A stretch of DNA of 23,028 bases from an uncultured virus (IMG/VR IMGVR_UViG_2504643008_000009) (IMGVR_UViG_2504643008_000009); one strand, 5' to 3'. Counted from the first letter of the stretch, positions 4,948 through 22,136 are shown. Notes: generated by a model from the letters alone, not told the origin. Program-made: numbers and translations.

Positions 4948-4948
4948 A

Positions 4949-5023
4949 AAGATTCCTTACTTGATCTAGTGGGTTTCTGTTTTCGACGCCTCAACAGTTG
5001 CTGCTGTTGGGGCGTTTACTTTT
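4949..5023 (+). ncRNA. Candidate sar-like antisense RNA covering the ant RBS
   Basis: TAGAAT -10 at 4938-4943 inside the ant start, and a plus-strand hairpin ACGCCTCAACAG...CTGTTGGGGCGT followed by TTACTTTT. Same position as P22 sar; no good -35. Confidence 0.4.
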
Positions 5024-5292: not shown

Positions 5293-5694
5293 ATGTCAAA
5301 AGAACGCACGTACCCAAGCAGAGCCGCAGATCAGTTCATTGTGCGCCTCCCTGACGGGATGCGCGGCGAGATAAGCGCCGCAGCCACAGCTAACAATCGG
5401 TCAATGAACGCCGAGATCGTCTCCCGATTGCAACAATCCTTCGATTCCGATGGTGATCTTGATGTGGACGTGCGTGAGATTGCTCAAAAGGTTGCTCAAC
5501 AACGTGGCCTATCGTTCAGGGATGCCCTGCGGCTGCTTGTTCTAGCAGGAGCCAATCCAGACGCGCCAAGTATCCTGTTCATCAAACCCACATCTGGCAT
5601 GACTTTGGAGGAGTATCGCTTGATGTTCGAGGTTGCCGATAAATTCACCCCACCCGATGCCACAATCTTGATGGACCCACCTGACAAGCCGTAG
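5293..5694 (+). CDS. Arc/Mnt-family repressor with C-terminal extension
   Basis: DQFIVRLPDGMRGEISAAATANNRSMNAEIVSRLQQSF RHH motif; divergent from arc-ant. Confidence 0.85.
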   Translation: MSKERTYPSRAADQFIVRLPDGMRGEISAAATANNRSMNAEIVSRLQQSFDSDGDLDVDVREIAQKVAQQRGLSFRDALRLLVLAGANPDAPSILFIKPTSGMTLEEYRLMFEVADKFTPPDATILMDPPDKP

Positions 5695-7772: not shown

Positions 7773-8565
7773 AGCGTTGATATCCGTGCTTCATGGAGCT
7801 GGTTTTGTCTTCGGCAGCGCGGCGAATCCAGTTACGCCAGGTGGCCTCCCAATCCTGTTTGCGCCCCTTGGCTCCGGCCACGCTGCGCCAGTAATCGCGG
7901 AATTTCTCGGCTTCGTAGCGTCCATCCACACCCTGCTGGGTGGCGTACAACACATCAACCTCACTGGGTACCCAGTCATCGGGCAGGCGTGAGCCGTGAG
8001 GCGAGCGCTTGGGTTTTCCCGTGCTGCCGGTGGCGTTGCCGTCCTCGGCGAATACCAAACTCTCTTCCGAACACAGTGAGGAAGAGATAATGGGATCTGG
8101 AGTCTGGTGTCTGGTGGGCTTTTGATTGGGTTCTATCTGGGTTTCATTTGGGTTTGTGTTGGCTTTTGATTGGGTTTCATTTGGGTTATCTAAATCAAAG
8201 TCAGCGGGTTTCTGTTGGGTTTGTGTCTGGCTATCATGATGAGCAGAATTTCTAGGCCGCCCTCCCTTTTTGCCGTTCTCCTGCTGTGCTGCTGCCCTTG
8301 CATGAAAGCGAGCGATTTCCTCATCACATCGCTTGTTATGCCAGCCGTCCTCTTGCAATAAGAAGAATTCATCAAGCACCACATCAACAGCGCTTTTCTC
8401 TTTTTTGCTATGGGCACGCGCGATGCGGTGCGCCTTGTTAGCCGGAATCGGTTGCTCTGTGGCGTAGTAGCGATCTAACAGCAGGCAGTAAATGCCATGT
8501 TCGAGCACCGAGAGGTACCCCGTGTCACGGGCGTAATCGCCAATGTGGCGTTCGTAATAATTCAT
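7678..8565 (-). CDS. Replication initiator, YdaU/DUF1376 N-terminus (O-like)
   Basis: MNYYERHIGDY..DT.YLS..EHG.Y.LLLD.YY, NGKKGGRP, C-terminal KFRDYW..DWEATWRNWIR; ATG overlaps the upstream stop (ATGA). Confidence 0.85.
   Translation of the reverse strand: MNYYERHIGDYARDTGYLSVLEHGIYCLLLDRYYATEQPIPANKAHRIARAHSKKEKSAVDVVLDEFFLLQEDGWHNKRCDEEIARFHARAAAQQENGKKGGRPRNSAHHDSQTQTQQKPADFDLDNPNETQSKANTNPNETQIEPNQKPTRHQTPDPIISSSLCSEESLVFAEDGNATGSTGKPKRSPHGSRLPDDWVPSEVDVLYATQQGVDGRYEAEKFRDYWRSVAGAKGRKQDWEATWRNWIRRAAEDKTSSMKHGYQRYEYNSRPMRLGLADQARAFHRQFDLRDGSLQ
8115..8222. repeat. Iteron-like ~11-bp periodic repeats inside the initiator gene (probable ori)
   Basis: TGGGTT at 8127, 8138, 8149, 8171, 8182, 8216, with variants at 8115, 8160, 8205. 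Confidence 0.65.
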
Positions 8566-9704
8566 GCAGCCTCCCTCAGACACGCGATGACGTCTGGATT
8601 CCACAAGAGTTGATAACTGCTGTGCCCGTTGCGTGAGTACGGAATGGCTTCACCCCACACGCGACCGGCTTCGGTTAATTCCCATTCGTCGCGTTCATTA
8701 CGGAACTGAAAGCCTCTGGAGGCTAATAATTGGTTCACCGCCTTGGCCGAGCAATGCAGCCGCTTGCCTAGTTGCGTGGCGTTGAGCAGGCAAAGCGGTT
8801 CCTGCAACGCAGGCAATGCACGGCGTAGTTCTTCGGTTGTTAAATTCGTGTTGCTTTTGATGCAGGCCAGCGTTGCCGCTGCGGCAATCCCTGGCTTCAT
8901 CCCTGGCACCGTGGAAATGTATTGGCCGATTAATAGGAGTGCGGCAATGCGATCCTGTGTCGGCCCAGGCAAGGTGGGCAGCGCCCCCGGTGTGGAGTAC
9001 GTGCCTGTCTTGCGCAGGGTGGGCAGGACTTCGCTCGTCACCCAACGCTTAAAACGCTTGGCCGCAGGTTTTGTGCTGCCCATGATCAGGGCATACAAAC
9101 CGGATTCGTTAATGTGGTTGGTCTGTCGGGTGCGCCCTAGGTTGTCGGTTGCGTCCAGCTTCTGGACGTCTTCTACATCGACGTGTGATTCAATCGCTTG
9201 GCGCGGATTGCCAAACTCTAATATTGAGCACACGTCATTGGCGTTGAACCATGGCGCATTGGCCTCGTCGAGCTGAATACGCACATCTTTTGATTCAAAT
9301 TGGAATGGGGTGATTGCGTTGGCGGAATGCGTGGAGTGGTCAAGCGCGGGACGGTTGCCTGTCTTGCGCATGGTTGGCAGCACTCCCTCAAATACCCAAC
9401 GCTCGAACCGCTCTGCGGCAGGGAGTTTGCTGCTCACAATCAAGCGGAGCATGTCAGGCTCGGAGATGATCCGGACTTCCTGCATTCCGCCTGGTGTCTG
9501 AAGGGGGAGGCGTTTTGCCTCCCCCTTGCAGTGGGCACTCAAAGCTTTGCTGTGATCGGCGTAGCCTAATACCGCAGCAACATCCTTGCCGACGAACCAC
9601 ACTTCACCGTGATCATCGACCACAGTTCGCACGGCTTGCGATTCAAAGTGAAACGGTGTGATTGCGTTCATTCCAACTCCCTGTTCATTACTGATGGTGT
9701 TCAT
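8562..9704 (-). CDS. Double Bro-N domain antirepressor-like protein
   Basis: Two Bro-N repeats (NAITPFHFES.. and NAITPFQFES.., each ending VLPTxRKTG) plus an ANT-like tail (NATQLGKRL..SAKAVNQLL). Alternative start at 9671. Confidence 0.85.
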   Translation of the reverse strand: MNTISNEQGVGMNAITPFHFESQAVRTVVDDHGEVWFVGKDVAAVLGYADHSKALSAHCKGEAKRLPLQTPGGMQEVRIISEPDMLRLIVSSKLPAAERFERWVFEGVLPTMRKTGNRPALDHSTHSANAITPFQFESKDVRIQLDEANAPWFNANDVCSILEFGNPRQAIESHVDVEDVQKLDATDNLGRTRQTNHINESGLYALIMGSTKPAAKRFKRWVTSEVLPTLRKTGTYSTPGALPTLPGPTQDRIAALLLIGQYISTVPGMKPGIAAAATLACIKSNTNLTTEELRRALPALQEPLCLLNATQLGKRLHCSAKAVNQLLASRGFQFRNERDEWELTEAGRVWGEAIPYSRNGHSSYQLLWNPDVIACLREAA

Positions 9705-10489
9705 GACAGATGCCTGCTTGCATTGCCCATGCCCTTTTGGGCGGCCTGCTCCATGTGCGGGCCGATGGCTTTTTCTGAGAACGCTTTACTCATGCGCTCA
9801 ATCGCGACTTTTGCGATATCTGGTAGATGCTTGCTTGGAAACGTTGGGTGTCTGACCCAATCCGCTACTTCGTCGCTAGTAAGAAAATTGGTATGCAGTG
9901 TTACGGGTGTCAGCCGTAGCCTGAAGTCAGGACCGAAATCCAGTATCCAGCGATGCCATCTCAGTAGTTCGACGAGTGCCGATGTGGCAATGGCTTTACT
10001 ATCTTCCAACCCTTTTGGAAATTCAGGCTCTTTTATTCCTGCGGACTCAAGTAGCCTTCTGACATCGCTAATCCAACGGCTATGAGCGGTGTTTAACTCC
10101 TCCATTTGCTTACGGTCTTTGGAGTAGCTGCGCATCTGGTCGTATTCCAGATCGGGATTCACTGTGTACTCGCCCGTCTTGCGGATCGAGGGAAGGACTT
10201 CGCCAGCTAACCACTTCTGGAATGGCAGAGCCTTTGGTTTATCACTGCGGCCAAGAAAGAAGTACAAACCAGGTTCGGAAATAACGATGACTTCTTGCTG
10301 CCCAGAGGGGGTGGAAACGGATTCCACCCCCCTCCACTCTGAGGGAACATGACTAATGCTTTTGCTAGCGTTCCAGCGATACTCCAACGCTTCGGCAATA
10401 TCCTTAGCAACGAACCACGGATTGCCATCGCGCATCACAACGCGCACAACGTGGGAATGAAAATCGAACGGAATAATGGACCGCGTCAT
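9701..10489 (-). CDS. Bro-N antirepressor-like protein
   Basis: PWFVAKDIAEALEY..ISEPGLY..EVLPSIRKTGEY; C-terminal ~155 aa nearly identical to 4111..4947. Confidence 0.87.
   Translation of the reverse strand: MTRSIIPFDFHSHVVRVVMRDGNPWFVAKDIAEALEYRWNASKSISHVPSEWRGVESVSTPSGQQEVIVISEPGLYFFLGRSDKPKALPFQKWLAGEVLPSIRKTGEYTVNPDLEYDQMRSYSKDRKQMEELNTAHSRWISDVRRLLESAGIKEPEFPKGLEDSKAIATSALVELLRWHRWILDFGPDFRLRLTPVTLHTNFLTSDEVADWVRHPTFPSKHLPDIAKVAIERMSKAFSEKAIGPHMEQAAQKGMGNASRHLS
9710..10175. repeat. 466-bp direct repeat, copy 2
   Basis: Matches 4120-4585. Confidence 0.95.
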
Positions 10490-11088
10490 AGAACGTCTCC
10501 TACTGCTGAGATGAGGCTACGGGAGACGTTTTGACGCGCCACGCCCGTAGGTGTCGGGAGGTTCAAAACCGCGCAGTAGTTACGGCGCACAGCTTTTCCC
10601 TTGCGGGTCTTGTATCGCTGTTGCCCTCCCGACATAAAAACGTACGAGTATAAAAAATCCGCGAGCTGACGAGTGCGGATACCGCCACTGCAAGAGTTTT
10701 GAAGCTCCTTACCGAAGACGGTACCGCAGCGGTGAATGTGGGTCAAGCTCACGGTGTCATTGCTTACATAGCTCCCCGTCTTGCGGATTGAGGGCAGGAC
10801 TTCATCCGTAACCCAATCCGAGAAGGCAACAGCCTCTGGCTTACGGCTCCGTAGGACAAGGCGGTATAAGCCCCCTTCGGAAACGATCGTAAGTGATTGA
10901 TTTCCTTTGATGGTACTCACAATGTGAGTACCCTTCTGATGTGCACCAACGTGGCGTGCTGCATTAGCCGCATCGCGGTAGCCGAGCGCTACAGCAACAT
11001 CGGTAGCAACGAACCACGGATTGCCATCGCGCATCACAATGCGGACAGTGTGGGAATTAAAGTCAAACGGAATAATGGACTGCGACAT
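10486..11088 (-). CDS. Bro-N protein whose C-terminal part reads through c4 cassette 2 (frame also open upstream to 11349)
   Basis: MSQSIIPFDF..PWFVATDVAVALGY..EVLPSIRKTGSY; GGGAG RBS; stop overlaps the next ATG. Confidence 0.8.
   Translation of the reverse strand: MSQSIIPFDFNSHTVRIVMRDGNPWFVATDVAVALGYRDAANAARHVGAHQKGTHIVSTIKGNQSLTIVSEGGLYRLVLRSRKPEAVAFSDWVTDEVLPSIRKTGSYVSNDTVSLTHIHRCGTVFGKELQNSCSGGIRTRQLADFLYSYVFMSGGQQRYKTRKGKAVRRNYCAVLNLPTPTGVARQNVSRSLISAVGDVL
10553..10633 (-). ncRNA. c4-like antisense RNA, cassette 2
   Basis: Closing stem GTCGGGAGG/CCTCCCGAC, CCC-GCAA-GGG hairpin, seeds CTACTGC and GTTTTGAA complementary to sites both upstream and downstream. Confidence 0.75.
10718..10746 (-). 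promoter_or_regulatory. Sigma70-type promoter of cassette 2
   Basis: TTGACC-17 bp-TACCGT; both hexamers are conserved in all three cassettes while this spacer differs. Confidence 0.65.
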
Positions 11089-11152
11089 AAAAATGTCTCC
11101 CGATTTATGAGAAGAACACAGGGAGACGTTCTTACGCGCCGCACCTGTGGGT

Positions 11153-11230
11153 GTCGGGAGGTTAAGAACCGAAATCGGACGGCGGGCAGCTTTCCCCTTG
11201 CGGGTGTTGTATGGCTGCCGCCCTCCCGAC
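11153..11230 (-). ncRNA. c4-like antisense RNA, cassette 1
   Basis: 78 nt, stem GTCGGGAGG/CCTCCCGAC, GCAA hairpin, seeds CCGATTTCGG and GTTCTTAA with matching flanking targets. Confidence 0.78.
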
Positions 11231-11314
11231 GTAAAGCGTGCGGGCGTAAAAAAACCGCATGATTTTCGGATGCGGGTACCGCCGATTTCGGAGTTCTTAA
11301 GCTCCTTACCGGCG

Positions 11315-11343
11315 ACGGTACCGCAGCGGCGTACAGTGGTCAA
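11315..11343 (-). promoter_or_regulatory. Sigma70-type promoter of cassette 1
   Basis: TTGACC-17 bp-TACCGT. Confidence 0.65.
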
Positions 11344-11345
11344 GC

Positions 11346-11711
11346 TCACGCTGTCGCCTCCACTGACGCTAATATCGGCAGTGCGGAGAGAAAACGTTCA
11401 AATTCAGCGCCGAACAGCGCGCTGTAAGTAACATGGACGGTGCCATCTGCTACAGGTGTGCTTACGTGCTGACTAAAGACAAGATCAGAATCAAACTCCT
11501 TATCAGAGGAAAGCTGATCGAGGAAGCCCAAAGCCAACTCAACAGCACGCTTTCTGGAATTAACAGGAATGTTTTCCAAAAGGGTCGCAAGCTGCCTTAG
11601 CTGCTCTTGCATCCCTGAAATATCAAAGAAAAAGCGAACAGCGGTGCTCATGGCATCACCGTCGCCAGAGTGCACCGTGTCCACGGCCCCGCTGTCATTG
11701 CTTGCTTTCAT
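11346..11711 (-). CDS. Hypothetical phage protein
   Basis: ATGA coupling to the upstream ORF; in the operon direction. Confidence 0.55.
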   Translation of the reverse strand: MKASNDSGAVDTVHSGDGDAMSTAVRFFFDISGMQEQLRQLATLLENIPVNSRKRAVELALGFLDQLSSDKEFDSDLVFSQHVSTPVADGTVHVTYSALFGAEFERFLSALPILASVEATA

Positions 11712-11956
11712 TCTTGATTCCTTAAGGGCTTTTTAAGTCCCTTCAAATAAACCACCACGCCTTTTCCAAGAGGCGAATGCCCATTCTTGGCCCGTAGCAG
11801 ATAAGCGTCCTTTAGTGCTTGTTTTGCAGCGTGTTCTACCGCTTCATCAACGCAAGCCAGTCCATAGATTTGTGTGTATTGCTCAAACATTTTTCGATCA
11901 GCAGGGCTTAGATCAATTTTCACAGGGCCTCCAAAGGGCCTGGTTAGGCACTTCAA
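11708..11956 (-). CDS. Hypothetical phage protein (small, possible DNA-binding)
   Basis: Overlapping stop/start chain with its neighbours. Confidence 0.55.
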   Translation of the reverse strand: MKCLTRPFGGPVKIDLSPADRKMFEQYTQIYGLACVDEAVEHAAKQALKDAYLLRAKNGHSPLGKGVVVYLKGLKKPLRNQE

Positions 11957-12141
11957 GCCGCGTCTGCTTGCCGCTTATCATTCTTTATCGCAGCAGTTGC
12001 TACCGATAACGCAAGTTCACGAACTAACGCCGCTGGTTGCATCCCGTTGTATTGAGCCAACGCAAGGATCAATTCGCGTTCGGCATCGTTAAAACGCACC
12101 TTCACCGGGTGACTACGAATGTGAGTTGGATCGGCATACAT
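11953..12141 (-). CDS. Small RHH-like regulator
   Basis: VKVRFNDAERELILALAQYNGMQPAALVREL pattern. Confidence 0.6.
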   Translation of the reverse strand: MYADPTHIRSHPVKVRFNDAERELILALAQYNGMQPAALVRELALSVATAAIKNDKRQADAA

Positions 12142-12201
12142 GGATTCATTACCAAGGGTTATTCAATGTCATTGGAAAGATCGAATACAGCGCATCACAC
12201 G

Positions 12202-12699
12202 TCACAGGGATTTCCCCACGACCTCTTGATGCTTCTTAAAAGCTTCTGCTTGATGCTGCATCAGCAAAAGATCTACTTGGGTTTTAAGCACCTCTATTGC
12301 CTCGCTGCGTTTTCTTTCTCTGGGAAAAGCAGCTTCTTGACTAGACATAGCTCTAATTTGGAGGTCCGAAATGTGTGTCAACAAGCTTGAAACGATGTCA
12401 TATAAAAACGAGATTCGACGCTCCAACGCCGCTGCGTTAATGGGTGCTTCTTCTTGCGTTGACGTTGCTTTGGGTTTTTCAGATTTCCCCAACATCCATC
12501 GCATCGGCTTGCCTGCGAATCCTCGACTCAAATCTAATTCAAGCAATAAGTCTTTCCGGGCTTTCACTTGTGACCGTGGCGGTCGTTTACAGAAAAGTGG
12601 CAAGGTGGGCTTGGATGATCGTTCTCCACAAATGGATAAAAGGGTACGTAAAGAAGCACCCCACAGCGAAGTAAAAAAAGTGCCTTTCTCACGCAGCAT
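12202..12699 (-). CDS. Hypothetical protein downstream of cro (start uncertain)
   Basis: Open frame; ATG at 12699 overlaps the cro end; helical C-terminal half. Confidence 0.35.
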   Translation of the reverse strand: MLREKGTFFTSLWGASLRTLLSICGERSSKPTLPLFCKRPPRSQVKARKDLLLELDLSRGFAGKPMRWMLGKSEKPKATSTQEEAPINAAALERRISFLYDIVSSLLTHISDLQIRAMSSQEAAFPRERKRSEAIEVLKTQVDLLLMQHQAEAFKKHQEVVGKSL

Positions 12700-12937
12700 C
12701 GGACACCTCCTGCCTGTGGCCTGTGGGGGGAGCGCCGAAGATAAGAACTTCTTTGCAAAGTTCTCCCTTCGAGATGCGCTCAATAGCTACGGCACGCTCC
12801 GGCGTAATACGAACTCGCCCTTTCTCAATTTGGGAAACGAGCGCTTGCGTAGTCGGGCAGCCGCCCTCAGTAAGCAGGCGCGCTAGTTTGGCTTGAGAGA
12901 TACCGACTGATGATCGGTAGGTTTTGATGATGTCCAT
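12689..12937 (-). CDS. cro: Cro/YdaS-like HTH repressor
   Basis: ISQAKLARLL..TTQALVSQIEKG..ITPERAVAIERISKG; divergent from cI. Confidence 0.85.
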   Translation of the reverse strand: MDIIKTYRSSVGISQAKLARLLTEGGCPTTQALVSQIEKGRVRITPERAVAIERISKGELCKEVLIFGAPPTGHRQEVSDAA

Positions 12938-12943
12938 CAGCAA

Positions 12944-13020
12944 ACAATAGCGCCACTTATCAAGAATATCAATAGTGGCGCTAATTGGTGATGAGCGCAG
13001 AAACAATTAGCGTTTTTAAT
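12944..13020. promoter_or_regulatory. OR region: pR, pRM and three 15-bp operators
   Basis: Operators AATAGCGCCACTTAT 12946-60, AATAGTGGCGCTAAT 12971-85, ATTAGCGTTTTTAAT 13006-20. pR (minus) TTGATA-17-TATTGT; pRM (plus) TTGGTG-17-TAGCGT. Confidence 0.75.
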
Positions 13021-13755
13021 ATGAATATACCTAGGACTAGAAAAGCCAAGCCCACACCAGCTGATATTGAAGCTGGAAAGCGTTTACGTGCTGAATGGGA
13101 TAAGCATGCTTTTGCACTTGGCTTAACGCAGGAAAAAATGGCAGACATCCTTGGCGGCACCCAAGGTTTAGTCAGCCAGTACCTTACACAGAGAATTCCT
13201 CTGAACTATAGGTCTTTGCTTCTCTTCTCCAAGGCACTTAATATCGCCCCGGAAGTCATTAGAACGGACCTTCCAGAACAAAAACTAGTTCAACCTTCTA
13301 CGAATACTGAAGACATGTGGGCTGATGTATGCAGTTATACGCAAGGTATGGGGTTAGGCACTACTGGACCAGAGATCGCGGAGGATGTGGATACCCACAT
13401 TCTGAAATTCCGCAAGGATTCGTTACATAAAAGGCACCTAAACTATGAAAACCTTGTCATCATGCATGGTAACGGCGATTCCATGCTCCCCAACATTGAA
13501 TCAGGGGACGCCATTATGTTTGACACATCAGACACTACGCCCCATGACAAGCACATCTATGTGATTGTCACCCCAGGTGCCGCCGCTGATGAGTACAACG
13601 TTAAGCGATGTATCATTGATAATAAAAAGCAGGTTTTTTTTGCCGCCGACAACCCTCTGGGGGATCACGACTGGAAGTCACCACGCTGGAAAGATGATCC
13701 AAATTACCCAATTAAGATTATTGGCAGGGTGAGGTGGGTTGGTAGGTGGCTATAG
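13021..13755 (+). CDS. cI: CI-like repressor (HTH + S24 peptidase domain)
   Basis: LTQEKMADILGGTQGLVSQYL HTH; GDSMLPNIESGD and NVKR catalytic motifs; IIGRVRW end. Confidence 0.92.
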   Translation: MNIPRTRKAKPTPADIEAGKRLRAEWDKHAFALGLTQEKMADILGGTQGLVSQYLTQRIPLNYRSLLLFSKALNIAPEVIRTDLPEQKLVQPSTNTEDMWADVCSYTQGMGLGTTGPEIAEDVDTHILKFRKDSLHKRHLNYENLVIMHGNGDSMLPNIESGDAIMFDTSDTTPHDKHIYVIVTPGAAADEYNVKRCIIDNKKQVFFAADNPLGDHDWKSPRWKDDPNYPIKIIGRVRWVGRWL

Positions 13756-13812
13756 TAATTGCAGCCACCTCCACCGCGACCCTCTTCAGCACGATAGTGT
13801 TACGCTAATGGT

Positions 13813-14331
13813 ATGGATACCGAATTGCATACCATGCGATGGGAACTTCTGTGGGGAGTGCAAAAGTCACAGCGCTATCACTCCTGCCGTATGGCGTTCT
13901 TTGAACGCTGCAACATGCTGAGTTCTTTTATCGGTCTATTGGGCGCTTCCGCCGTCATTGCTTCGTTCGGCAAGTACACAGCAGAGTGGATGGCTATTGC
14001 CGGAGCAGTCACTGTCACCATCGCCACCAGTATTAACCTGGTGGCTGGAACGGCACAGATGGCCCGTATCCATAGCGACCTACGCCGCCGCTTCTCTCAA
14101 CTTGAGTCCGACATCGTCAAGCATCCAGACGCAACGCAAGAACAAGTTTCTGCCTGGACTGCACAGCGTCTGGAGATAGAAAGCGATGAGCCGCCGATCT
14201 TTATTGCCTTGGATATTTTGTGTGAGAACCAGGTGACGCGATCTTATGCCCATCTAAAGGACCATCCATCGCACAAACTGCCCTGGTTCAAGCGTGTTAC
14301 GGCTCAGTGGCTGACGTGGGGAAATGCATAA
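13813..14331 (+). CDS. Two-TM membrane protein, SLATT-like topology
   Basis: N-terminal helix (SQRYH), two TM helices, then MARIHSDLRRRFSQLE helix. Confidence 0.6.
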   Translation: MDTELHTMRWELLWGVQKSQRYHSCRMAFFERCNMLSSFIGLLGASAVIASFGKYTAEWMAIAGAVTVTIATSINLVAGTAQMARIHSDLRRRFSQLESDIVKHPDATQEQVSAWTAQRLEIESDEPPIFIALDILCENQVTRSYAHLKDHPSHKLPWFKRVTAQWLTWGNA

Positions 14332-14353
14332 CTTGCGATGAGGAAAGATCACC

Positions 14354-14644
14354 ATGCGCCCCTCTGTTGCACTTGAGATGAAGCGCACCGCAGTGCGTGA
14401 AGCGGTAGGCCGCTTCCGCGCCGCTAACCCGCGTGTTTTCGGTTCGGTGCTACATGGCACTGACCACGACGGCAGCGACATTGATCTGCTGGTGGATGCA
14501 TTGCCTGGTGCGACACTGTTCGACCTAGGCGATCTTGAAGAAGAACTGAAATCGTTACTCGGCGTTGACGTCGATGTACTAACGTCAGGCGATCTGCCGC
14601 TTAAGTTCCGGGCGAAGGTGCTCGCGGAAGCGCAGCCAATATGA
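14354..14644 (+). CDS. mntA: Minimal nucleotidyltransferase (MNT) antitoxin
   Basis: FGSVLHGTDHDGSDIDLLVD = GS-X10-DXD; LLGVDVDVLT. Confidence 0.9.
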   Translation: MRPSVALEMKRTAVREAVGRFRAANPRVFGSVLHGTDHDGSDIDLLVDALPGATLFDLGDLEEELKSLLGVDVDVLTSGDLPLKFRAKVLAEAQPI

Positions 14645-15009
14645 GTGGGAATAGACTTCCAGATTACCTTGAGCACATGCAGCAGGCCGCCACAGATGCG
14701 TGTAGTTTTGTGGAAGGTTTGGCCAAAGAGGATTTTCTTGAGGACAAACGAACCCAGCAAGCCGTCATCATGAGCCTTATTATCATTGGTGAAGCCGTCA
14801 CAAAGGTGATGGATCGCTATGCTGAGTTTACCCAGGCACATGATCAGGTACCTTGGCGGAGTATGCGCGGCATGCGTAATCGCATCGCTCATGGCTACTT
14901 TGAAATTAACCTTGACGTGGTGTGGGATACCGTGCAATCAGCGCTCCCAGAGTTGCTCAAGCAATTGGCCGCTGTGCGTCAAGATGCCAATGACCAATCA
15001 CTTTTATAA
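14641..15009 (+). CDS. hepT: HEPN (DUF86) ribonuclease toxin
   Basis: IIGEA and PWRSMRGMRNRIAHGY = R-X4-H-X-Y; ATGA overlap with the MNT gene. Confidence 0.9.
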   Translation: MSGNRLPDYLEHMQQAATDACSFVEGLAKEDFLEDKRTQQAVIMSLIIIGEAVTKVMDRYAEFTQAHDQVPWRSMRGMRNRIAHGYFEINLDVVWDTVQSALPELLKQLAAVRQDANDQSLL

Positions 15010-15027
15010 GAGTCTAGAAGTTTTTTT

Positions 15028-15201
15028 ATGGGAAACGTGAGGTATAGAAAACATGAAGAATCCTCTAAGGTGAGAAGGGCGGTGCTTGGCCTTGTCTCTG
15101 AAGTTGTTGAAGTCAAGGAAAGAAATTCACGCCAGATAGCCCGCATTAAAAACGGTATGAAGCATGGTGCTGCGGAAGGAAGCAAAAAATTCCGTATTTG
15201 A
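15028..15201 (+). CDS. Small basic hypothetical protein, 57 aa (absent from the ORF track)
   Basis: MGNVRYRKHEESSKVRRAVLGLVSEVVEVKERNSRQIARIKNGMKHGAAEGSKKFRI fills the gap; stop overlaps the TTG of the next ORF. Confidence 0.45.
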   Translation: MGNVRYRKHEESSKVRRAVLGLVSEVVEVKERNSRQIARIKNGMKHGAAEGSKKFRI

Positions 15202-15599
15202 CGCTGGAAAGTTCATCACTTGCGGGCGACGGCAATCTGTCCCATGATGCCAGCATGGAAGCACGTATAGTTCAACTTGAAACCATCATCCCCACACTTG
15301 CCACCAAGGCAGATGTTGAAAGCTTGCGGGCTGACTTAAACAAGTCGGCAGGTGAACTACTGGCCGACTTAAACAAGTCGGCGGGTGAGATGCGTGCTGA
15401 TTTCGAGAAGGCTCAAAAAGAAAACCGGACATGGATGCTCGCTACGGTATTAGCCCTTTTTGCAGGCATTCTTGGTGTTGGCGGCTTCGTGGTCAGCAGC
15501 ATCAAGGGGAGCTATCAAGCGTTACCGGCTCAGTCCGCCCCAATCATCATCCAAGTTCCTGCTCAAGCATTGCAGCCACCGCCGCAAGCGGCTAAGTAG
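15198..15599 (+). CDS. Coiled-coil protein with one C-proximal TM helix (DUF1640/CCDC90-like; ATG alternative at 15255)
   Basis: LATKADV motif, repeated ADLNKSAGE, TM WMLATVLALFAGILGVGGFVV. Confidence 0.65.
   Translation: MTLESSSLAGDGNLSHDASMEARIVQLETIIPTLATKADVESLRADLNKSAGELLADLNKSAGEMRADFEKAQKENRTWMLATVLALFAGILGVGGFVVSSIKGSYQALPAQSAPIIIQVPAQALQPPPQAAK
15330..15395 (+). repeat. 33-bp in-frame tandem repeat x2
   Basis: GCTGACTTAAACAAGTCGGCAGGTGAA.. and GCCGACTTAAACAAGTCGGCGGGTGAG.. Confidence 0.85.
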
Positions 15600-15762
15600 T
15601 TTCTTTAGATTTGGGTTGCTCACGAAACGGCGCTAATGATATTAGTACCGCCGTAACAATCTCTTAGTGTCTGCTGTGTCATTCCCAGTTATGGAATGCG
15701 ACGAGTTCACTTTTCCTACTGAAAAAGCATTCATTGTGCTTTCATAAGAGATACACATAATT

Positions 15763-15804
15763 ATTAGTGCCGCTATTTACATTAATAATAAGCGGCACTA
15801 TTGT
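15763..15804 (+). promoter_or_regulatory. OL operators and pL
   Basis: ATTAGTGCCGCTATT 15763-77 and ATAAGCGGCACTATT 15788-802 (25-bp spacing, as at OR); TTTACA-17-TATTGT. Confidence 0.78.
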
Positions 15805-15859
15805 AACTCCATCGCCCCACGACACCCGCACCCGGCGGCAGGGGCCAGGAGATATCGAA

Positions 15860-16300
15860 ATGACATTGTTTTATCGGAATGGCATTAAGAATATGGCTGG
15901 CATTGGCTACAGCAGCTACAACGACCCCCGCCTGCAACCACCGAAAGACGATGCTAAAGAGTATTTCGCAGAACGGGTTAATGCTCGCGTTCAAGAGTAT
16001 TTAAGCGACCCTGAAAAAATCGAAGAAGCCGATGAATGGGTGGACGGTACGTTATCGGAGGCCCATTACAAAGAGATGGAAATCGTTCTAGCGGATTTAC
16101 ATGCCCTGCCTTCGGATCAGTTAAGCGACAGCGATGTATTAGCCCGTCTTTACGCACTGGCCGAAGTGCAAGGACTCGCACGCATGGAACAACTGCGCAT
16201 CCTTGCCGAGCAGGACGTACAAGAGGACATACAAACAGCGCAAGAAGCGCATTGGTATCACCGTAGCGGTATCGATGCCATGCAGGAGAACTACGCATGA
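15860..16300 (+). CDS. Acidic hypothetical phage protein, first gene of the pL operon
   Basis: AGGAG RBS before ATG 15860; coupled to the next ORF. Confidence 0.7.
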   Translation: MTLFYRNGIKNMAGIGYSSYNDPRLQPPKDDAKEYFAERVNARVQEYLSDPEKIEEADEWVDGTLSEAHYKEMEIVLADLHALPSDQLSDSDVLARLYALAEVQGLARMEQLRILAEQDVQEDIQTAQEAHWYHRSGIDAMQENYA

Positions 16301-16488
16301 TCCCCTGCACCATCACCGCACGCACCAAGCAGGGTGTGTACACCTACACCGGCCTGTTTCAGAAAACTGTTGAGGCTAAGTCTGACGCATACCGGCGCTT
16401 CGGATTCCCAGCTGTCATCGCCGTTACAGCCATTCACCGCAAATCAATGCGAAACAACACGCATCCCAGCCCGCCACGTGCGGCGTGA
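16297..16488 (+). CDS. Hypothetical phage protein
   Basis: AGGAG RBS, ATGA overlap. Confidence 0.6.
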   Translation: MIPCTITARTKQGVYTYTGLFQKTVEAKSDAYRRFGFPAVIAVTAIHRKSMRNNTHPSPPRAA

Positions 16489-16636
16489 TCTCACACAAAA
16501 ACCCCCGAGATTTTTCGGCAAAGGAATTCCTATGTCACACCTGTATCGCAATCTCAATTTCTGGATGGGTTGCTGTAATCATCATGCCGTAGACATCTAC
16601 GGCACACCTGCATATTGCAGGAAGTGTGCGCCTCAT

Positions 16637-17077
16637 TTATTTCTCGCGTCTGCGGACGACGTGAACGGCCCCCTCCGTGACTATCTCGACTTGCGATATC
16701 GGCTCAGTCGTCCAGTAAGCCTCAGCGATCTTACGGAAGTGCTCAAGCGGATCAACTCCGGGAAGGATGTCGAAATCGTAACACCCACGATGGATCCGAT
16801 GGACCTCCAAATCCGCCGTGACTTCGTAAACAAGTGTTCCGCGGGCATGGATGTCTCGATAGGTGATCGCATCTTGCAAATTTTCGAGGAGAAAGACCGC
16901 ATGCAGGCGGCTCGGTTTATCTGGGCTGATTTGCTGCCTTACGTACTCAAGGAAGGACTCCCTCCAGAGATTAGGAACTATCTGAGTATTCAAGCGCAGC
17001 ACTCTCCCCCAATTGCCAGGCTCAATGATGCTACCGGCTCCGAGAAGGATGGGTGAGCAGTGGAAATACGTCTTCAA
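16637..17077 (-). CDS. DUF2441-like protein (putative ADP-ribosyltransferase-like fold), antisense to the pL operon
   Basis: TYFH, RESFLEYVRQQISPDKPSRLHAVF, VYEV, AEAYW...VEIVTEG pattern; TTG start. Confidence 0.6.
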   Translation of the reverse strand: MKTYFHCSPILLGAGSIIEPGNWGRVLRLNTQIVPNLWRESFLEYVRQQISPDKPSRLHAVFLLENLQDAITYRDIHARGTLVYEVTADLEVHRIHRGCYDFDILPGVDPLEHFRKIAEAYWTTEPISQVEIVTEGAVHVVRRREK

Positions 17078-17174
17078 TGCAATGTCTGCAGGATCAGCGG
17101 ATAAAGCCGCCCATGATACCGGACCGACTTCTGAGCACCGCTGCTGCCCTGACTATCAAGCAGGAAACCCACCC

Positions 17175-17366
17175 ATGAACCGCTATCGCACACCGAAAGA
17201 ACAACACGTAGCACGTTGCAACTACGACGCGCACCCTGGGTTAGCCCAATGCATTTTGCGCGATACCCGAGCAATGCCCAATGCAATACGCATCACCAAT
17301 TACCGCGTTCGCCGCGCGCAATACGAAGCCGCTAAAACGCTTTCTTCAACCCTGATCAAGCACTAA
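17175..17366 (+). CDS. Small basic hypothetical protein
   Basis: AGGA RBS before ATG 17175. Confidence 0.5.
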   Translation: MNRYRTPKEQHVARCNYDAHPGLAQCILRDTRAMPNAIRITNYRVRRAQYEAAKTLSSTLIKH

Positions 17367-17386
17367 CACCACTGCTGGAGGACACC

Positions 17387-17731
17387 ATGTCTATCACTAC
17401 AGAAAGAACATCGTTAACAGACCTCGAACACCTATTTGAAGTCGCAGACGGCGGAATACTCGCCACAAAATTCGCAAAGGCATTAAGCGATGTGGCGTTG
17501 GCCATCAACTACACCCGTAAACAAGGTGAAGTCACGCTCAGCTTAAAACTCAAACCCATTGGCGAATCCTCACAAGTCATGATCGATCACACCTTGAAAT
17601 ATGTTGAACCAAAGCTACGCGGCAAAGTCATAGAGGAAGACACCACTAGCACGCCAATGTATGTCGGGGCACGCGGCAAATTAACGCTCATCCCAGAGAC
17701 ACAACAGCAATTGTTCGCTGAAAAAAACTAA
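17387..17731 (+). CDS. YfdP-like conserved phage protein
   Basis: DGG...ALSDVA..KQGEVTL..TPMYVGARGKLT; GGAGG RBS; paired with DUF2303. Confidence 0.7.
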   Translation: MSITTERTSLTDLEHLFEVADGGILATKFAKALSDVALAINYTRKQGEVTLSLKLKPIGESSQVMIDHTLKYVEPKLRGKVIEEDTTSTPMYVGARGKLTLIPETQQQLFAEKN

Positions 17732-17770
17732 TCATCACCCATTAAATAAACTGAAAAAAGGAGCTGATTC

Positions 17771-18592
17771 ATGGACAAAACAGCCATAGAACATATTCAA
17801 CAAACCGCCATTGATGCTAATAAATTCCGTTTACCGCCTGCATTACAGGATATCGCGGTAGCGATTCCAGATAACTATGACATCAGAAATCTCGAATCTC
17901 TCTACACATTACGCTCGCGTTTCCGTGGAGAAATGAAAACCCAATCTATTACCGACTTCGTGCAGTACATCAAGACAAAAGGAAATGGCGAAGGTTTTAT
18001 TAATGCAGAAAATCTCAGTGCCAAGATATTTTTCAATCTCGGTACAACAGAATCACCCGGTCATGGCGACTGGACAGCCACGCTCACACTTAACGCCACA
18101 GCAGCTTACAAAGCACTGCTGGATATTGACGGTAAAACACTCAATCAGCGGAAGTTGATTGATTTCCTGGAAGATTGGGCACCGCTGCTGTCGGCCACAT
18201 CACAAGAAAGCCTTGATGAACTACCGTTGACGACCGCGATTAACGCGATTCGCAAATTAACTATCAAGAAAACCTCAGAGTCAGAATCGACTCAGGGCGA
18301 ATTCAATACATCACGCTCCAAGTTCGATGATATCGAAGCCAAATCAGCTATTGGCTTACCGATTGGTTTCACCTTCAGGACCCAGCCGTATCTTGGATTA
18401 CCGGAACGCAGATTCCTGCTACGGCTGTCCGTATTTACCGACGAAGAAAAAGAAAAACCACTCATCACACTGCGCCTCATACAGCGCCAAGCACAGCAGG
18501 AAGCGATCGCCCAGGATTTTAAAAGTGTGTTGTTTCGTGATCTTGAAAGACACGCCACGCTGACGATTGGCACATTCTCCCCATCCCTTTAA
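17771..18592 (+). CDS. YfdQ/DUF2303 family protein
   Basis: RSRFRG, IFFNLGT..PGHGD, Q..LIDFLEDW, PYLGL.ERRF.LRL. Confidence 0.8.
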   Translation: MDKTAIEHIQQTAIDANKFRLPPALQDIAVAIPDNYDIRNLESLYTLRSRFRGEMKTQSITDFVQYIKTKGNGEGFINAENLSAKIFFNLGTTESPGHGDWTATLTLNATAAYKALLDIDGKTLNQRKLIDFLEDWAPLLSATSQESLDELPLTTAINAIRKLTIKKTSESESTQGEFNTSRSKFDDIEAKSAIGLPIGFTFRTQPYLGLPERRFLLRLSVFTDEEKEKPLITLRLIQRQAQQEAIAQDFKSVLFRDLERHATLTIGTFSPSL

Positions 18593-18607
18593 CAGAGCGA
18601 AGCTGCC

Positions 18608-19543
18608 ATGAACTCCCTGTCTGTCATCAAACCAAACAATGTCATACCAATGACAGCCGAATACCGGCAGTCGATCCGTACCGCATTGAAAACCAGTCTT
18701 TATCCTGGGGCTTCAGATACCTCTGTCGATATGGTGTTGGCCTATTGCCAAGCGGCTGATTTAGACCCGATGACAAAACCCGTTCACATCGTGCCGATGT
18801 GGATTCCAGAAAAGAAAGTCGATGGGCGCGTTGTGTCATCGGCAGGCATGCGCGATGTGATCATGCCCGGGATCGAACTGTATCGAACCAAGGCACACCG
18901 CACTGGCGAATACGCCGGACAAGATGAAGCCGTGTTTGGAGACACCGTCTGCGAAACACTGGGCGGCGTGCAGATACGCTATCCGTCATGGTGCCGCATT
19001 GCGGTGTACCGCATGGTTGCTGGTGAACGCGTCCGGTTTGCCGCAACCGTGTATTGGCTGGAAGCCTATGCCACCGCAAGAAAAGACAGCCCCGCCCCTA
19101 ACAGCATGTGGCAAAAACGCCCCTTTGGGCAGTTGGAGAAATGCGCTGAAGCCTTGGCATTACGTAAGGCATTCCCAGAAGCCGTGGGCGCTCAACCGAC
19201 GGCTGAAGAAATGGATGCCGGACGACACACGATTGAGGGCGAAACGATCCATGCTGCCCCCATCCCCGTTAACAAAGACATCAGAGAAATCAGCGGCCCT
19301 TACCCACAAGAAGAATTTGAAAAGAATTTTCCAAAATGGTGTGACCTGATTGAATCAGGAAAAACCACGGCAGATCGCATCATCACGATGCTGCATAGCA
19401 AAGACAAAGGCCAATTAACCCCAGAGCAACTCACCGCCATTCGCGCCTGCGCAGAAGACACCAGTGCTGCCAATGCTGAGCCTGTGCCTACAGACAACAC
19501 CCCACAGGAAAGCAACACCACTGACACGGAAGAAAACACATGA
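18608..19543 (+). CDS. bet: Bet/RecT-family single-strand annealing recombinase
   Basis: YCQAADLDPMTKPVHIVP, GIELYRTKAHRTGEYAG, MWQKRPFGQLEKCAEALALRKAFP. Confidence 0.9.
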   Translation: MNSLSVIKPNNVIPMTAEYRQSIRTALKTSLYPGASDTSVDMVLAYCQAADLDPMTKPVHIVPMWIPEKKVDGRVVSSAGMRDVIMPGIELYRTKAHRTGEYAGQDEAVFGDTVCETLGGVQIRYPSWCRIAVYRMVAGERVRFAATVYWLEAYATARKDSPAPNSMWQKRPFGQLEKCAEALALRKAFPEAVGAQPTAEEMDAGRHTIEGETIHAAPIPVNKDIREISGPYPQEEFEKNFPKWCDLIESGKTTADRIITMLHSKDKGQLTPEQLTAIRACAEDTSAANAEPVPTDNTPQESNTTDTEENT

Positions 19544-21192
19544 ACATCATTGAACTGACCCAAGGCACCCCGCAATGGCACACCCACCGCGCCAAGTATC
19601 TCAATGCCAGCGACGCACCGGCCATGATGGGATGCAGCCCCTATAAAAGCCGTGCCGAACTGATACGCGAACGCGCCACGGGGATCACCCCTGACTATGA
19701 CCAAGCCACGTTACAACGTTTTGCTGAGGGGCATCGCGTTGAAGAACTGGCACGCCCCTTGGCAGAACGCATCATCGGTGATGACCTGTATCCCTGTGTT
19801 GGTTTCGATGACATGTATTCGGCCAGCTTCGACGGCTTGACCTTGCTGGAAGACACCGTGTGGGAACACAAGCAACTCAATGACACGATTCGCGCCGCCA
19901 TGACAGACGGCAGCACCGGCCAAGACCTGCCATTACATTATCAAATACAGATGGAACACCAGTGCATGGTGTCCGGTGCCCAACGTGTCCTGTTCATGGC
20001 CTCGGCCTGGAATGGTGAACAGCTCATAGAAGAACGTCATTGCTGGTACACCCCAACCCCCGAATTACGTAACCGCATCATCAACGGATGGCAACAACTG
20101 CAAGCGGACATCGCCGCCTACCAGCCTGAGCCACCACCACCGCCTGCGGCCTTGGGGCGTTCACCAGAGCAACTACCGGCATTGCATATTGCAGTCACAG
20201 GAACGGTGACCACCTCCAACCTGCCGCACTTCAAAGCCTGCGCACTGGCCGTATTGCACAGCATCAACCGTGACCTGCGCACCGATGAGGATTTTGCCAA
20301 CGCAGAACAAACCGTGAAATGGTGCAAAGGCGTCGAGACGCGCCTAGACGCCACCAAACAACAGGTATTAGGACAAACAGCCGACATCGATGCCGTCTTC
20401 CGCACCCTGGACGAAATCGCCGAAGAAACCCGCCGTGTTCGCCTGGAATTGGATCGCCTGGTGAAAACCGAGAAAGATCACCGCCGTACTGAAATTGTCC
20501 ACACCGGCCTGAAGACCCTGCGTGACTACTACGCCAGCCTCAACGCGAGGTTAGAGGAGTATGCCCTACCGATTCCGGCTGATTTGCCTGCAAAGATCGG
20601 TGACACCATCAAAGGCAAGAAGTCGATGATCAGCATGCAGGAGGCTGTGAGCGCCGCCGTGGCTCACGAGAAGATCAACATCACTGCCCACGTGGAACGG
20701 GTGCGCGCCAATATCACCGTGATGGAAGCATGTAACGCGGCTTACCGCTCCCTGTTTCCAGACAGGGTGAGTCTATGCATCAGCAAAACACCCGATGACC
20801 TGCGCAATCTGATCCTTGCCCGCATTGCCGATCATCAGCAGCAGGAACAGGCACGCATCCAAGCCCAACGCGAGCGCCAGAACACCGTCGAAGCAACGCC
20901 ATTACCCACCCAGTCCACAGCTCACTGCTCCACCGAATCCACTGCAACCACTGCAACCACTGCAACCACCCCAGCATCCACAGGCCACCTCATCAAGCTG
21001 GGTGATATCAACGCATTGATTGCACCACTGTCCATCAATGCCGATGGATTAGCGTCACTGGGTTTTGTTCCTGTCAGCACCGAACGCGCCACCAAGTGGT
21101 ACGCCACTGCTGAATTTCCTGCGATCTGTCATACCTTGAAACAGGTGTTGTCCGACGCTTCATCCCGCACCGCCATCAAGCAGGCCGCGTGA
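19540..21192 (+). CDS. YqaJ/lambda-type exonuclease with a long coiled-coil C-terminus
   Basis: QGTPQWH..R..LNASDA..MG.SPYK, ASFDG, WEHK, YQIQMEHQ. Confidence 0.88.
   Translation: MNIIELTQGTPQWHTHRAKYLNASDAPAMMGCSPYKSRAELIRERATGITPDYDQATLQRFAEGHRVEELARPLAERIIGDDLYPCVGFDDMYSASFDGLTLLEDTVWEHKQLNDTIRAAMTDGSTGQDLPLHYQIQMEHQCMVSGAQRVLFMASAWNGEQLIEERHCWYTPTPELRNRIINGWQQLQADIAAYQPEPPPPPAALGRSPEQLPALHIAVTGTVTTSNLPHFKACALAVLHSINRDLRTDEDFANAEQTVKWCKGVETRLDATKQQVLGQTADIDAVFRTLDEIAEETRRVRLELDRLVKTEKDHRRTEIVHTGLKTLRDYYASLNARLEEYALPIPADLPAKIGDTIKGKKSMISMQEAVSAAVAHEKINITAHVERVRANITVMEACNAAYRSLFPDRVSLCISKTPDDLRNLILARIADHQQQEQARIQAQRERQNTVEATPLPTQSTAHCSTESTATTATTATTPASTGHLIKLGDINALIAPLSINADGLASLGFVPVSTERATKWYATAEFPAICHTLKQVLSDASSRTAIKQAA
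20941..20967 (+). repeat. 9-bp tandem repeat ACTGCAACC x3 in the exonuclease linker
   Basis: Read directly; encodes TAT x3. Confidence 0.85.
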
Positions 21193-21284
21193 TGACAGGG
21201 GCAACCAATATCACGAGCCATGTCATGAACAGCACGTTTGATGATCGCGTTCTCGGCAATCTCGATTCCAGATGCGGCCCGAGC

Positions 21285-21313
21285 TTGACCACTGTACGCC
21301 GCTGCGGTACCGT
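21285..21313 (+). promoter_or_regulatory. Sigma70-type promoter of cassette 3
   Basis: TTGACC-17 bp-TACCGT; 21281-21327 is an exact inverted copy of 11301-11347. Confidence 0.65.
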
Positions 21314-21401
21314 CGCCGGTAAGGAGCCTCGAAACTCCATTGCATCCAGCGGTTACCGCATCCGTCAATCTCGCGGTTTTTTTGTGCCCGTTCGTTTTCA
21401 C

Positions 21402-21480
21402 GGCGGGAGGGTGACGGATAAAAAACCCCGCAAGGGGGAAGAAGTCCGCCTGTCTGGTTGCAGGTTTCGAGCCTCCCGCC
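21402..21480 (+). ncRNA. c4-like antisense RNA, cassette 3
   Basis: 79 nt, stem GGCGGGAGG/CCTCCCGCC (compensatory change relative to the other copies), CCCC-GCAA-GGGG, seeds CTGGTTG and GTTTCGAG. Confidence 0.78.
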
Positions 21481-21545
21481 TTCTACGGGTGCGACGCCTC
21501 GAAACGTCTCCCCGTGGTCATCTTGATCAACCAGGAGACGTTCTC

Positions 21546-22136
21546 ATGGCGCAGTCCATTATTCCGTTCAATTTTCATTCTCACGCTGTCCGCATTGTGA
21601 TGCGCGATGGTAATCCGTGGTTCGTTGCTAAAGACGTTGCCAAAGCGCTTGGCTACCGTGATGCGGCTAATGCAGCGCGCCACGTGAGCACACATCAGAA
21701 GGGTACTCATATTGTGAGTACCCTCAAGGGAAATCAAGAACTTACGATCGTTTCAGAAGGTGGGTTATACCGTCTTGTTCTAAGGAGCCGTAAGCCAGAA
21801 GCTGTTGCCTTCTCGGATTGGGTTACGGATGAAGTCCTTCCCTCGATCCGCAAGACGGGGAGCTATACCGCCACGGGAACAATGGTGAATGAGGATGTGC
21901 TCTACAACATCTGGTTTCTGTGCGACCACTTCAAGAAGCTGCACGAGATGTCCCGCGTCAATAAGGTTCCGCAAGCACTGTATTGGCTTGGAGCGACAGA
22001 GATTAGCGGTGAGCTTGGTACGCGTCTTCTTGAGGGCATGAGGGGCGGCGTTCTCAAAATAGAAAAAGCCCTCGGCCCACACCTGGAGCAGGCCGCCCAA
22101 AAGGTCATGGGCAATGCAAGCAGGCATCTGTCATGA
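21546..22136 (+). CDS. Bro-N antirepressor-like protein (frame open upstream to 21189)
   Basis: Bro-N close to that of 10486..11088; AGGAG RBS; ends GPHLEQAAQKVMGNASRHLS. Confidence 0.85.
   Translation: MAQSIIPFNFHSHAVRIVMRDGNPWFVAKDVAKALGYRDAANAARHVSTHQKGTHIVSTLKGNQELTIVSEGGLYRLVLRSRKPEAVAFSDWVTDEVLPSIRKTGSYTATGTMVNEDVLYNIWFLCDHFKKLHEMSRVNKVPQALYWLGATEISGELGTRLLEGMRGGVLKIEKALGPHLEQAAQKVMGNASRHLS

Follow-up and report, generated by a model that had tools for sequence, protein, structure and literature searches.

Three cassettes for c4-like antisense RNAs with covarying seeds, each upstream of its own Bro-N gene in an uncultured phage

Why would a phage carry one small RNA cassette three times, each copy in front of a different Bro-N gene and each with different pairing sequences? 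The question is raised by a 23,028-nucleotide stretch of DNA (the window, meaning the whole stretch at its full length) from an uncultured virus, IMG/VR record IMGVR_UViG_2504643008_000009. A reading made from the sequence alone (the sequence-only reading) took the three cassettes for c4-like antisense switches, i.e., each would encode a short RNA with two seeds, a′ and b′, that pair with one target upstream of the RNA (a1 and b1) and with another at the ribosome-binding site (RBS) of the next gene (a2 and b2). We find that this RNA–RNA pairing system is real and well supported: the seeds covary with both the upstream sites and the sites at the RBS, and the c4-like antisense switch is therefore well supported too. 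Repression of Bro-N, processing of the RNA and true orthogonality of the copies are what we infer.

The cassettes, which we call A, B and C, had been described as ~255 bp long. All three are present, within 1–3 nt of where they had been placed, and every element, seed and target string listed for them occurs in the window sequence. They share one scaffold of ~260 bp, with 85% per-column identity among the three, and differ mainly in the two seeds and the two target sites. The order of elements is the same in each: TTGACC, 17 nt, TACCGT, an AAGGAG...CTCC hairpin (a1 in the loop), b1, a GC hairpin with six or seven T after it, the RNA itself (78, 81 and 79 nt in A, B and C), a2, b2 and the ATG of a Bro-N open reading frame (ORF). 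Each RNA has a 9-bp closing stem and a GCAA loop, and b2 abuts GGAGAC. One correction concerns the seed lists, in which the strings were right but the labels of the first two cassettes were exchanged relative to their coordinates: GTTCTTAA/CCGATTT are the seeds of the copy placed at 11089–11344 (cassette A), and GTTTTGAA/CTACTGC are those of the copy placed at 10490–10747 (cassette B). Each copy does precede a different antirepressor-like gene, as proposed: the Bro-N ORFs are distinct, and each has a match among the PHROG 'anti-repressor' families.

The evidence that carries the pairing comes from related cassettes. Scanning IMG/VR with a 15-nt cassette pattern gave 104 stretches, in which 49 pattern matches have the RNA downstream; GAGCTTGACC lies upstream in 49/49 of these, and the other matches are without cassette context. 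With the window and Xylella phage Xfas53 (GQ421471) added, there were 59 promoter-pattern matches. Four without the RNA (L009, L016, L077, L102) and four without the GGAGAC–ATG end (L017, L027, L076, L080) were left out, giving 51 full cassettes, and removal of 10 exact duplicates gave the 41 unique cassettes of our alignment (A2). Across these 41, the upstream pairing (T1, a1b1 with a′b′) is formed in 96.9% of 685 cells and the pairing at the RBS (T2, a′b′ with a2b2) in 98.7% of 522 cells. Both partners change together in 12 of 17 T1 pairs and 10 of 13 T2 pairs, none of 500 shuffles reaches the observed value for T1 or for T2, and the best slid controls are only 51.6% (T1) and 51.5% (T2) paired. 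The central b positions use four or five pair types (e.g., one column pair has UA 17, GC 10, AU 8 and CG 5 times). Mean mismatches are 0.51 (T1) and 0.17 (T2) for cognate partners versus 3.74 and 2.99 for non-cognate ones. The claim that the seeds change together with both target sites thus finds strong support.

The pairing also holds outside this alignment. Within the window, composite a..b sites for each RNA were found only in that RNA's own cassette, and a chance origin of the pairing is excluded. In the wider family (99 loci from many phyla), the seed region has a complement of 7 nt or more upstream in 95% when sought in the RNA's own locus versus 27% in other loci, and downstream in 67% versus 20%. 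In Smp131, a P2-like Stenotrophomonas phage with 76% identity, a1/a2/a′ and b1/b2/b′ match perfectly and form a code of their own. Three cassettes look like recombinants: L024 174–430 has its b1 from another code while b′ and b2 agree, and the leader-hairpin arms of L048 884–1140 and L073 170–430 derive from different variants.

By covariance-model score, all three window RNAs are members of the Rfam family sRNA-Xcc1 (RF02221; sRNA, small RNA). Their scores (Table 1) exceed the gathering score of 53, and each alignment covers positions 1–87 of the 87-position model. This family was first found in a Xanthomonas campestris integron, and its founding member is a discrete 88-nt RNA according to Northern blotting and end mapping (PMC2996969, available text). 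The window RNAs also have the structure expected of the C4 type (a ~77-nt RNA whose closing stem encloses two hairpins, the second with b′ in its loop and followed by a single-stranded a′) and the immI-type arrangement, in which two seeds are complementary to an upstream a1b1 and to an a2b2 at the RBS of the ORF that follows. At least 121 loci from many phyla contain the core motif of the sRNA. Record titles of these loci name Pseudomonas, Xanthomonas, Neisseria, Haemophilus, Azospirillum, Desulfovibrio, an Alistipes metagenome-assembled genome, Synechococcus and Bartonella, the last with three copies in one strain.

Table 1. Positions of the cassettes, their parts and the associated genes in the window
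Feature	Position	Strand	Evidence or remark
Cassette A	11086..11343	-	RF02221 79.5 bits at 11145-11230
Cassette A, upstream part	-35 11338-11343; -10-like 11315-11320; a1 11293-11300; b1 11282-11291; hairpin+T7 11248-11277	-	
Cassette A, RNA core	11153-11230; b′ 11169-11178; a′ 11162-11169	-	
Cassette A, downstream part	a2 11128-11134; b2 11100-11106; GGAGAC 11095-11100; ATG 11086-11088	-	
Cassette B	10487..10746	-	RF02221 64.3 bits at 10545-10633
Cassette B, upstream part	-35 10741-10746; -10-like 10718-10723; a1 10696-10703; b1 10685-10692; hairpin+T6 10652-10679	-	
Cassette B, RNA core	10553-10633; b′ 10572-10579; a′ 10562-10569	-	
Cassette B, downstream part	a2 10528-10534; b2 10500-10506; GGAGAC 10495-10500; ATG 10487-10489	-	
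Cassette C	21285..21548	+	RF02221 58.5 bits at 21402-21488
Cassette C, upstream part	-35 21285-21290; -10-like 21308-21313; a1 21328-21335; b1 21341-21349; hairpin+T7 21354-21383	+	
Cassette C, RNA core	21402-21480; b′ 21454-21462; a′ 21464-21471	+	
Cassette C, downstream part	a2 21498-21505; b2 21528-21534; GGAGAC 21534-21539; ATG 21546-21548	+	
Bro-N ORF A, 200 aa	10486..11088	-	Pfam Bro-N 3.4e-23; Bro-N domain only at residues 1-~105
Bro-N ORF B, 262 aa	9701..10489	-	Downstream of cassette B; Pfam Bro-N 3.6e-21; phrog_2593 4.9e-73
Bro-N ORF C, 196 aa	21546..22136	+	Downstream of cassette C; Pfam Bro-N 5e-26; phrog_2593 1.4e-81
cI-like S24 repressor	12985..13755	+	Peptidase_S24 1.2e-08; repressor families phrog_4, phrog_6201

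Are the three codes different enough to be told apart? They differ from each other by 2–4 bases in a and at least 4 in b, so each RNA should act mainly on its own leader. In the alignment columns, the window RNAs pair with their own a2 at 6/6 positions and their own b2 at 7/7, versus 3–4 of 7 for a non-cognate b2. Between P1 and P7, for comparison, two bases of a and two of b are changed at each of the three positions, and c4 underlies their heteroimmunity according to the available part of a review. The three different codes proposed for the three copies are therefore borne out, with differences that exceed the one between P1 and P7, and orthogonality of the three is plausible from the seed sequences. 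Code variety is high in the wider set as well: the 41 cassettes contain 25 distinct a′/b′ strings, and the seed and target columns have an entropy of 0.81 bits versus 0.29 elsewhere and make up 17 of the 25 most variable columns. An identical code stands before a Bro-N gene on one contig and before a Rha-type ORF on a second (this ORF starts MTQLPAAVC and is annotated "Rha protein" in MT084350).

Where the sequence-only reading saw the triplicated set as the unusual part, we do not regard triplication as exceptional, because multi-copy sets are common. Xfas53, whose DNA is 87% identical to the cassette region, has three tandem units of ~380 bp upstream of bro-N, each with an RF02221 RNA and its own code; the window copies, in contrast, are spread out, two at a spacing of 597 bp and the third, on the opposite strand, 10 kb from them. 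One IMG/VR contig (L064 and L104, 10815–12805) has six tandem RNA cassettes at ~381-bp spacing, whose six different a′/b′ combinations draw on four b seeds and three a seeds. This reuse of the same b seed with different a seeds suggests that both seeds are required. X. fastidiosa Temecula1 has seven sRNA-Xcc1 homologues, five of them in tandem (sXF1-5) and the other two 10 kb apart on opposite strands, as in the window (PMC12189769, 2025, available text).

How might such a cassette work? It resembles P1 immI in having the same order of elements at similar spacing (in P1: promoters, a1, b1, a GC hairpin with a U-run, the 77-nt c4, a2, b2 and icd) and the same RNA topology, i.e., a closing stem, hairpin 1, hairpin 2 with b′ in its loop, a single-stranded a′ and the 3′ closing strand with a tail. 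In both, a1 lies in a hairpin loop, GCGG..CCGC..GCGG-U-run follows b1 and b2 overlaps the Shine-Dalgarno sequence (SD), and seeds change at all three positions, as between P1 and P7. The RNAs of cassettes A and B share a CACC-like tail with P1, whereas that of cassette C lacks ACC and has UUCU instead. The c4 RNA of P1 is cut by RNase P from the leader of the operon that it controls. The window differs from P1 in that Bro-N follows directly, with no icd, and in that the cassettes are located inside early operons with no separate immI region, lie within an open reading frame and occur in several copies per phage; Rfam, moreover, places sRNA-Xcc1 outside the C4 clan (CL00128). The cassettes also resemble the IsrK/STnc1160/orf45-anrP module of Gifsy-1, where a short terminated RNA is made close to the promoter and transcripts that read through continue into a processed RNA and then an antirepressor operon. 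There, the short terminated IsrK acts on its own read-through mRNA, and expression involves translational coupling (PMC4825925, available text). The isrK model is unmatched in the window, unlike in that module, and the direction of T1 control in the window would be carried over by analogy.

On these grounds, we consider it likely that the cassettes are antisense-RNA locks, each complete in itself and of the P1 immI or Gifsy-1 IsrK type, with an sRNA-Xcc1 RNA as the antisense part. Transcription would start near AAGGAG, from a promoter-like element whose -35 is conserved and whose -10 is weak. The first ~60 nt (T1) would present a1 in a hairpin loop with b1 beside it and end at a GCGG-loop-CCGC...GCGG-U-run terminator; by analogy with IsrK, most transcripts would probably stop at the U-run, yielding a short a1b1 RNA. 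Read-through would give the longer RNA with its tRNA-like closing stem, presumably excised from a precursor, with the b′ seed in or beside the loop of the second hairpin and the a′ seed in the single strand after it. The two seeds would then pair with a1/b1 and with a2/b2, which is the step that the covariation shows. The first G or Gs of the Bro-N GGAG are covered by b2, and a leader hairpin holds a2 in its loop; binding there most likely blocks Bro-N translation, as the P1 precedent suggests. The longer T1 site (8+10 bp versus 7+7 bp) may mask the seeds in cis or titrate the RNA in trans and thereby set a threshold, as it would by the example of IsrK. The outcome would be three separately addressed locks on three Bro-N genes.

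Folding predictions agree with part of this lock. In the minimum free energy (MFE) fold of the precursor, a1b1 pairs in cis with a′b′ in all three cassettes, and cofolding gives a gain for cognate T1 of -10.7, -3.5 and -7.6 kcal/mol, versus -2.1 or weaker for non-cognate T1. The T2 leader hairpin presents a2 in its loop, and at least five different compensating arm pairs support this hairpin. Unconstrained duplex energies were dominated by off-register pairing of conserved GC segments, and their values are unused here.

Several results weigh against the lock as just described. Cofolding restricted to nested structures gives a net gain of ~0 kcal/mol for the folded T2 leader in all nine RNA–target pairs, and the MFE fold of that leader already hides the SD in a GUCUCC/GGAGAC helix of 7–9 bp. 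The match to b1 is imperfect in two cassettes, relying on two G-U pairs in B and containing a central U-U mismatch in C. Specificity is incomplete in one case, as RNA C forms 6/7 pairs (two of them G-U) with the b2 of target A. A simple consensus scanner found 0 promoters and 0 terminators at all three cassettes; the -10 hexamer agrees with the consensus at 3/6 positions, and the loops of the terminator hairpins are longer than the scanner's 8-nt limit. The seed region is shared in 0/29 pairs within a contig versus 54/1246 (4.3%) between contigs, and since this background is only 4.3%, avoidance of shared codes within a contig does not go beyond chance. The 41 cassettes are close relatives chosen by a pattern that fixes the -10 region, and the shuffles ignore relatedness; we argue that the covariation is not an artefact, because the slid controls are low and many pair types occur. 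Finally, 39/41 cassettes are fully open in one reading frame, for which a simple lock model gives no explanation.

The Rfam assignment is a further point on that side. Models for C4 (RF01695), c4-a1b1 (RF03163) and isrK (RF01394) gave no match at E<=10 on 10300–11500 or at E<=5 on the whole window, while P1, as a positive control, scored 68.8, 51.0 and 35.1 bits, respectively. The description of the RNAs as c4-like therefore stands for the P1/P7-type layout and the seed covariation and falls for membership of Rfam C4, since no match appeared even at permissive thresholds. For the unit upstream of the RNA, the design shared with P1 and Gifsy-1 (a1 loop, b1, terminator) is seen by inspection.

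The absent T2 gain and the hidden SD have a consequence for the mechanism. Binding at the RBS must be co-transcriptional or otherwise kinetic, or involve a kissing complex; failing that, the main effect must be attenuation at T1, or the RNA must do something other than plain occlusion. The ~0 result for T2 thus keeps two alternatives alive, attenuation and activation.

In the first of these, which we think rather improbable but which survives best, the RNAs act mainly by transcription attenuation and the site at the RBS is secondary. The P4 CI RNA, with its sites seqA and seqC, acts in such a way, by premature transcription termination; it is a processed RNA with complementary sites upstream and downstream of its own gene, as in the window. 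Here, RNA bound to nascent a1b1 would remove a G shared with the GCGG-loop-CCGC hairpin, which would favour the CCGC...GCGG-U-run terminator and shut off both the RNA gene and the Bro-N gene. This GCGG/CCGC/GCGG-U-run element does lie directly 3′ of b1 in the window, P1 and Smp131, and it occurs in 37/99 wider-family loci versus 0/99 in each of two control regions. Furthermore, the T1 pairing is the longer one and the sole pairing predicted to be favourable, and the available text of the IsrK paper draws the parallel to P4 CI (PMC4825925). However, a2/b2 covary at least as tightly as a1/b1, b2 abuts the SD, and the proposed anti-terminator has only 4 bp. Attenuation would also be compatible with translational control.

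In the second, the sign is reversed: the anti-SD helix of the leader would keep Bro-N off, and pairing with a2/b2 would erode the ends of this helix and open the RBS. The MFE folds of all three leaders hide GGAGAC in the helix described above, the last bases of a2 and of b2 overlap the helix ends, and one RNA of the Gifsy-1 module activates translation (PMC4825925, available text). We nevertheless judge activation unlikely: b2 covers the first G or Gs of the SD, as it does in P1, where c4 represses, and the Gifsy-1 activator is an RNA of the a1b1 type, not the c4 type.

A slightly less likely alternative again is that the RNAs work in trans on mRNAs of bacteria or plants, the role published for sRNA-Xcc1 and sXF1-5, and that local complementarity is incidental. 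In the available text of that literature, the RNAs are trans-acting and virulence-linked or vesicle-delivered. Transcripts of all seven Temecula1 homologues are reported, with 4/5 island copies in vesicles (PMC12189769), and many targets are predicted (PMC12189769 and PMC2996969). These published targets are, however, predictions only, whereas a three-way covariation with sites in each cassette cannot be incidental, and within the cassette it is the seeds that vary most, unlike what conserved trans targets would lead one to expect. Additional trans effects may exist beside the cis pairing. The available parts of the sRNA-Xcc1 and sXF papers, including PMC12189769, mention no cognate cis targets, antirepressor genes or c4.

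What, then, of the open frame? Frame 0, counted from TTGACC, has 3 stops over the 41 cassettes, whereas the other two have 99 and 167; on the antisense strand, 9/41 are open. The effect is weaker in the wider family (sense open in 43/99 versus antisense in 26/99). At its downstream end, the open frame either is in frame with the gated ATG or ends in an ATGA overlap; at its upstream end, it has a GTGA overlap with the preceding gene at 11346–11349 and 21189–21192. There are 22 indel patterns among the cassettes that shift long segments into different frames, so only openness is kept and the amino-acid sequence is not conserved. Our best guess is that ribosomes from upstream early genes need to be able to pass through the cassette, which would suppress the terminator inside it and provide coupling to the Bro-N start.

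That the cassettes are instead protein-coding repeats is very improbable: the openness, the joins to the ATG, a phrog_17048 match and the GenBank annotations ('repeat-encoded protein' and the N-terminal parts of 'Rha' and 'anti-repressor') speak for it, but the frames switch between cassettes, openness alone is conserved, and the RNA model scores and compensatory changes indicate selection at the RNA level, so that a functional repeat protein is unlikely even though ribosome transit may be real.

The annotations themselves can be read from the RNA side. Xfas53 differs from our reading in that its cassettes are annotated as 'repeat_region' and as 'repeat-encoded proteins' gp20/gp21, i.e., protein-coding repeats. 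In the window, the duplicated unit of 597 bp behind cassettes A and B comprises a cassette and the N-terminal domain of Bro-N, so ORF A is a truncated Bro-N that runs through cassette B: beyond its Bro-N domain, it is cassette B read as protein, and its stop overlaps the start of ORF B (ATGA). The phrog_17048 match (6e-31) covers ORF A residues 109–199, the tail encoded by cassette B, and this 'anti-repressor' family therefore appears to be built on RNA cassettes. ORFs B and C, by contrast with this partial match, have full-length matches to the PHROG 'anti-repressor' family phrog_2593. Annotated or annotatable coding sequences contain RNA genes at window 10486–10810 (-), L001 5250–6166, L106 1998–2270 and L107 2414–2745, under the labels 'repeat-encoded protein', 5′ part of 'Rha protein' and 'anti-repressor'. 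This suggests that RNA genes have apparently been annotated as protein-coding in phage records and in one PHROG family.

Much of this system is of a known kind: c4/IsrK-type antisense locks on antirepressor genes are established, the RNA family is in Rfam, and the multi-copy state in Xylella is published. The new elements are a c4-type reading for the sRNA-Xcc1/sXF RNAs, which gives them cognate cis targets, the combinatorial diversity of the codes and the conserved open frame. Full-text literature searches, in the text available to them, found no paper that ties sRNA-Xcc1 to c4-type control, and none describing combinatorial code variety or a conserved open frame for sRNA-Xcc1/sXF RNAs.

A broader idea, which is possible though we lean against it, is that Xylella-type phages run a combinatorial two-seed RNA address system, in which the codes set which co-resident or incoming prophage releases whose antirepressor, forming a population-level RNA immunity network. 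If this were true, RNAs published as vesicle-borne trans-kingdom sRNAs would be phage immunity RNAs, and in lytic growth the open frame would allow ribosomes coming from early genes upstream to override the locks. The lock offers an alternative reading for the Xylella "sXF" RNAs and a concrete, testable function for a widespread Rfam family whose role has so far been described only as virulence-linked. The cassettes also amount to a natural collection of short seed/target pairs that covary on a common scaffold, which bears on how phage immunity diversifies and could guide the design of orthogonal RNA regulators.

The remaining genes of the window, from its protein annotation, are of the temperate phage type, and GC content is ~0.47–0.62. 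Encoded are a terminase, a lysozyme, RecT, a YqaJ-like nuclease, a single-stranded DNA-binding protein (SSB), a primosomal protein, a P22-type Arc/Ant pair and four Bro-N genes. The cI-like S24 repressor (Table 1) is presumed to be the target context of the antirepressors. The fourth Bro-N gene, at 8562–9704 (-), encodes 380 aa with two Bro-N domains and has no cassette of its own; its start overlaps the stop of ORF B, and the upstream locks would reach it only via coupling.

Two further modules were noted. At 4946–5020 (+), there is a sub-threshold match to the P22 sar RNA (RF00262; 28.1 bits versus a gathering score of 43, E 0.096). It adjoins 4111–4947 (-) and 5293–5694 (+) and is antisense to the start of a P22_AR_N antirepressor gene, from which an Arc-like gene is divergent; judging by this arrangement, a P22-type immI module seems to be present in the prophage too. 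At 14354–15009 (+), adjoining the repressor region, an MNT-like nucleotidyltransferase gene is paired with a HepT-like RNase gene, likely a toxin-antitoxin module.

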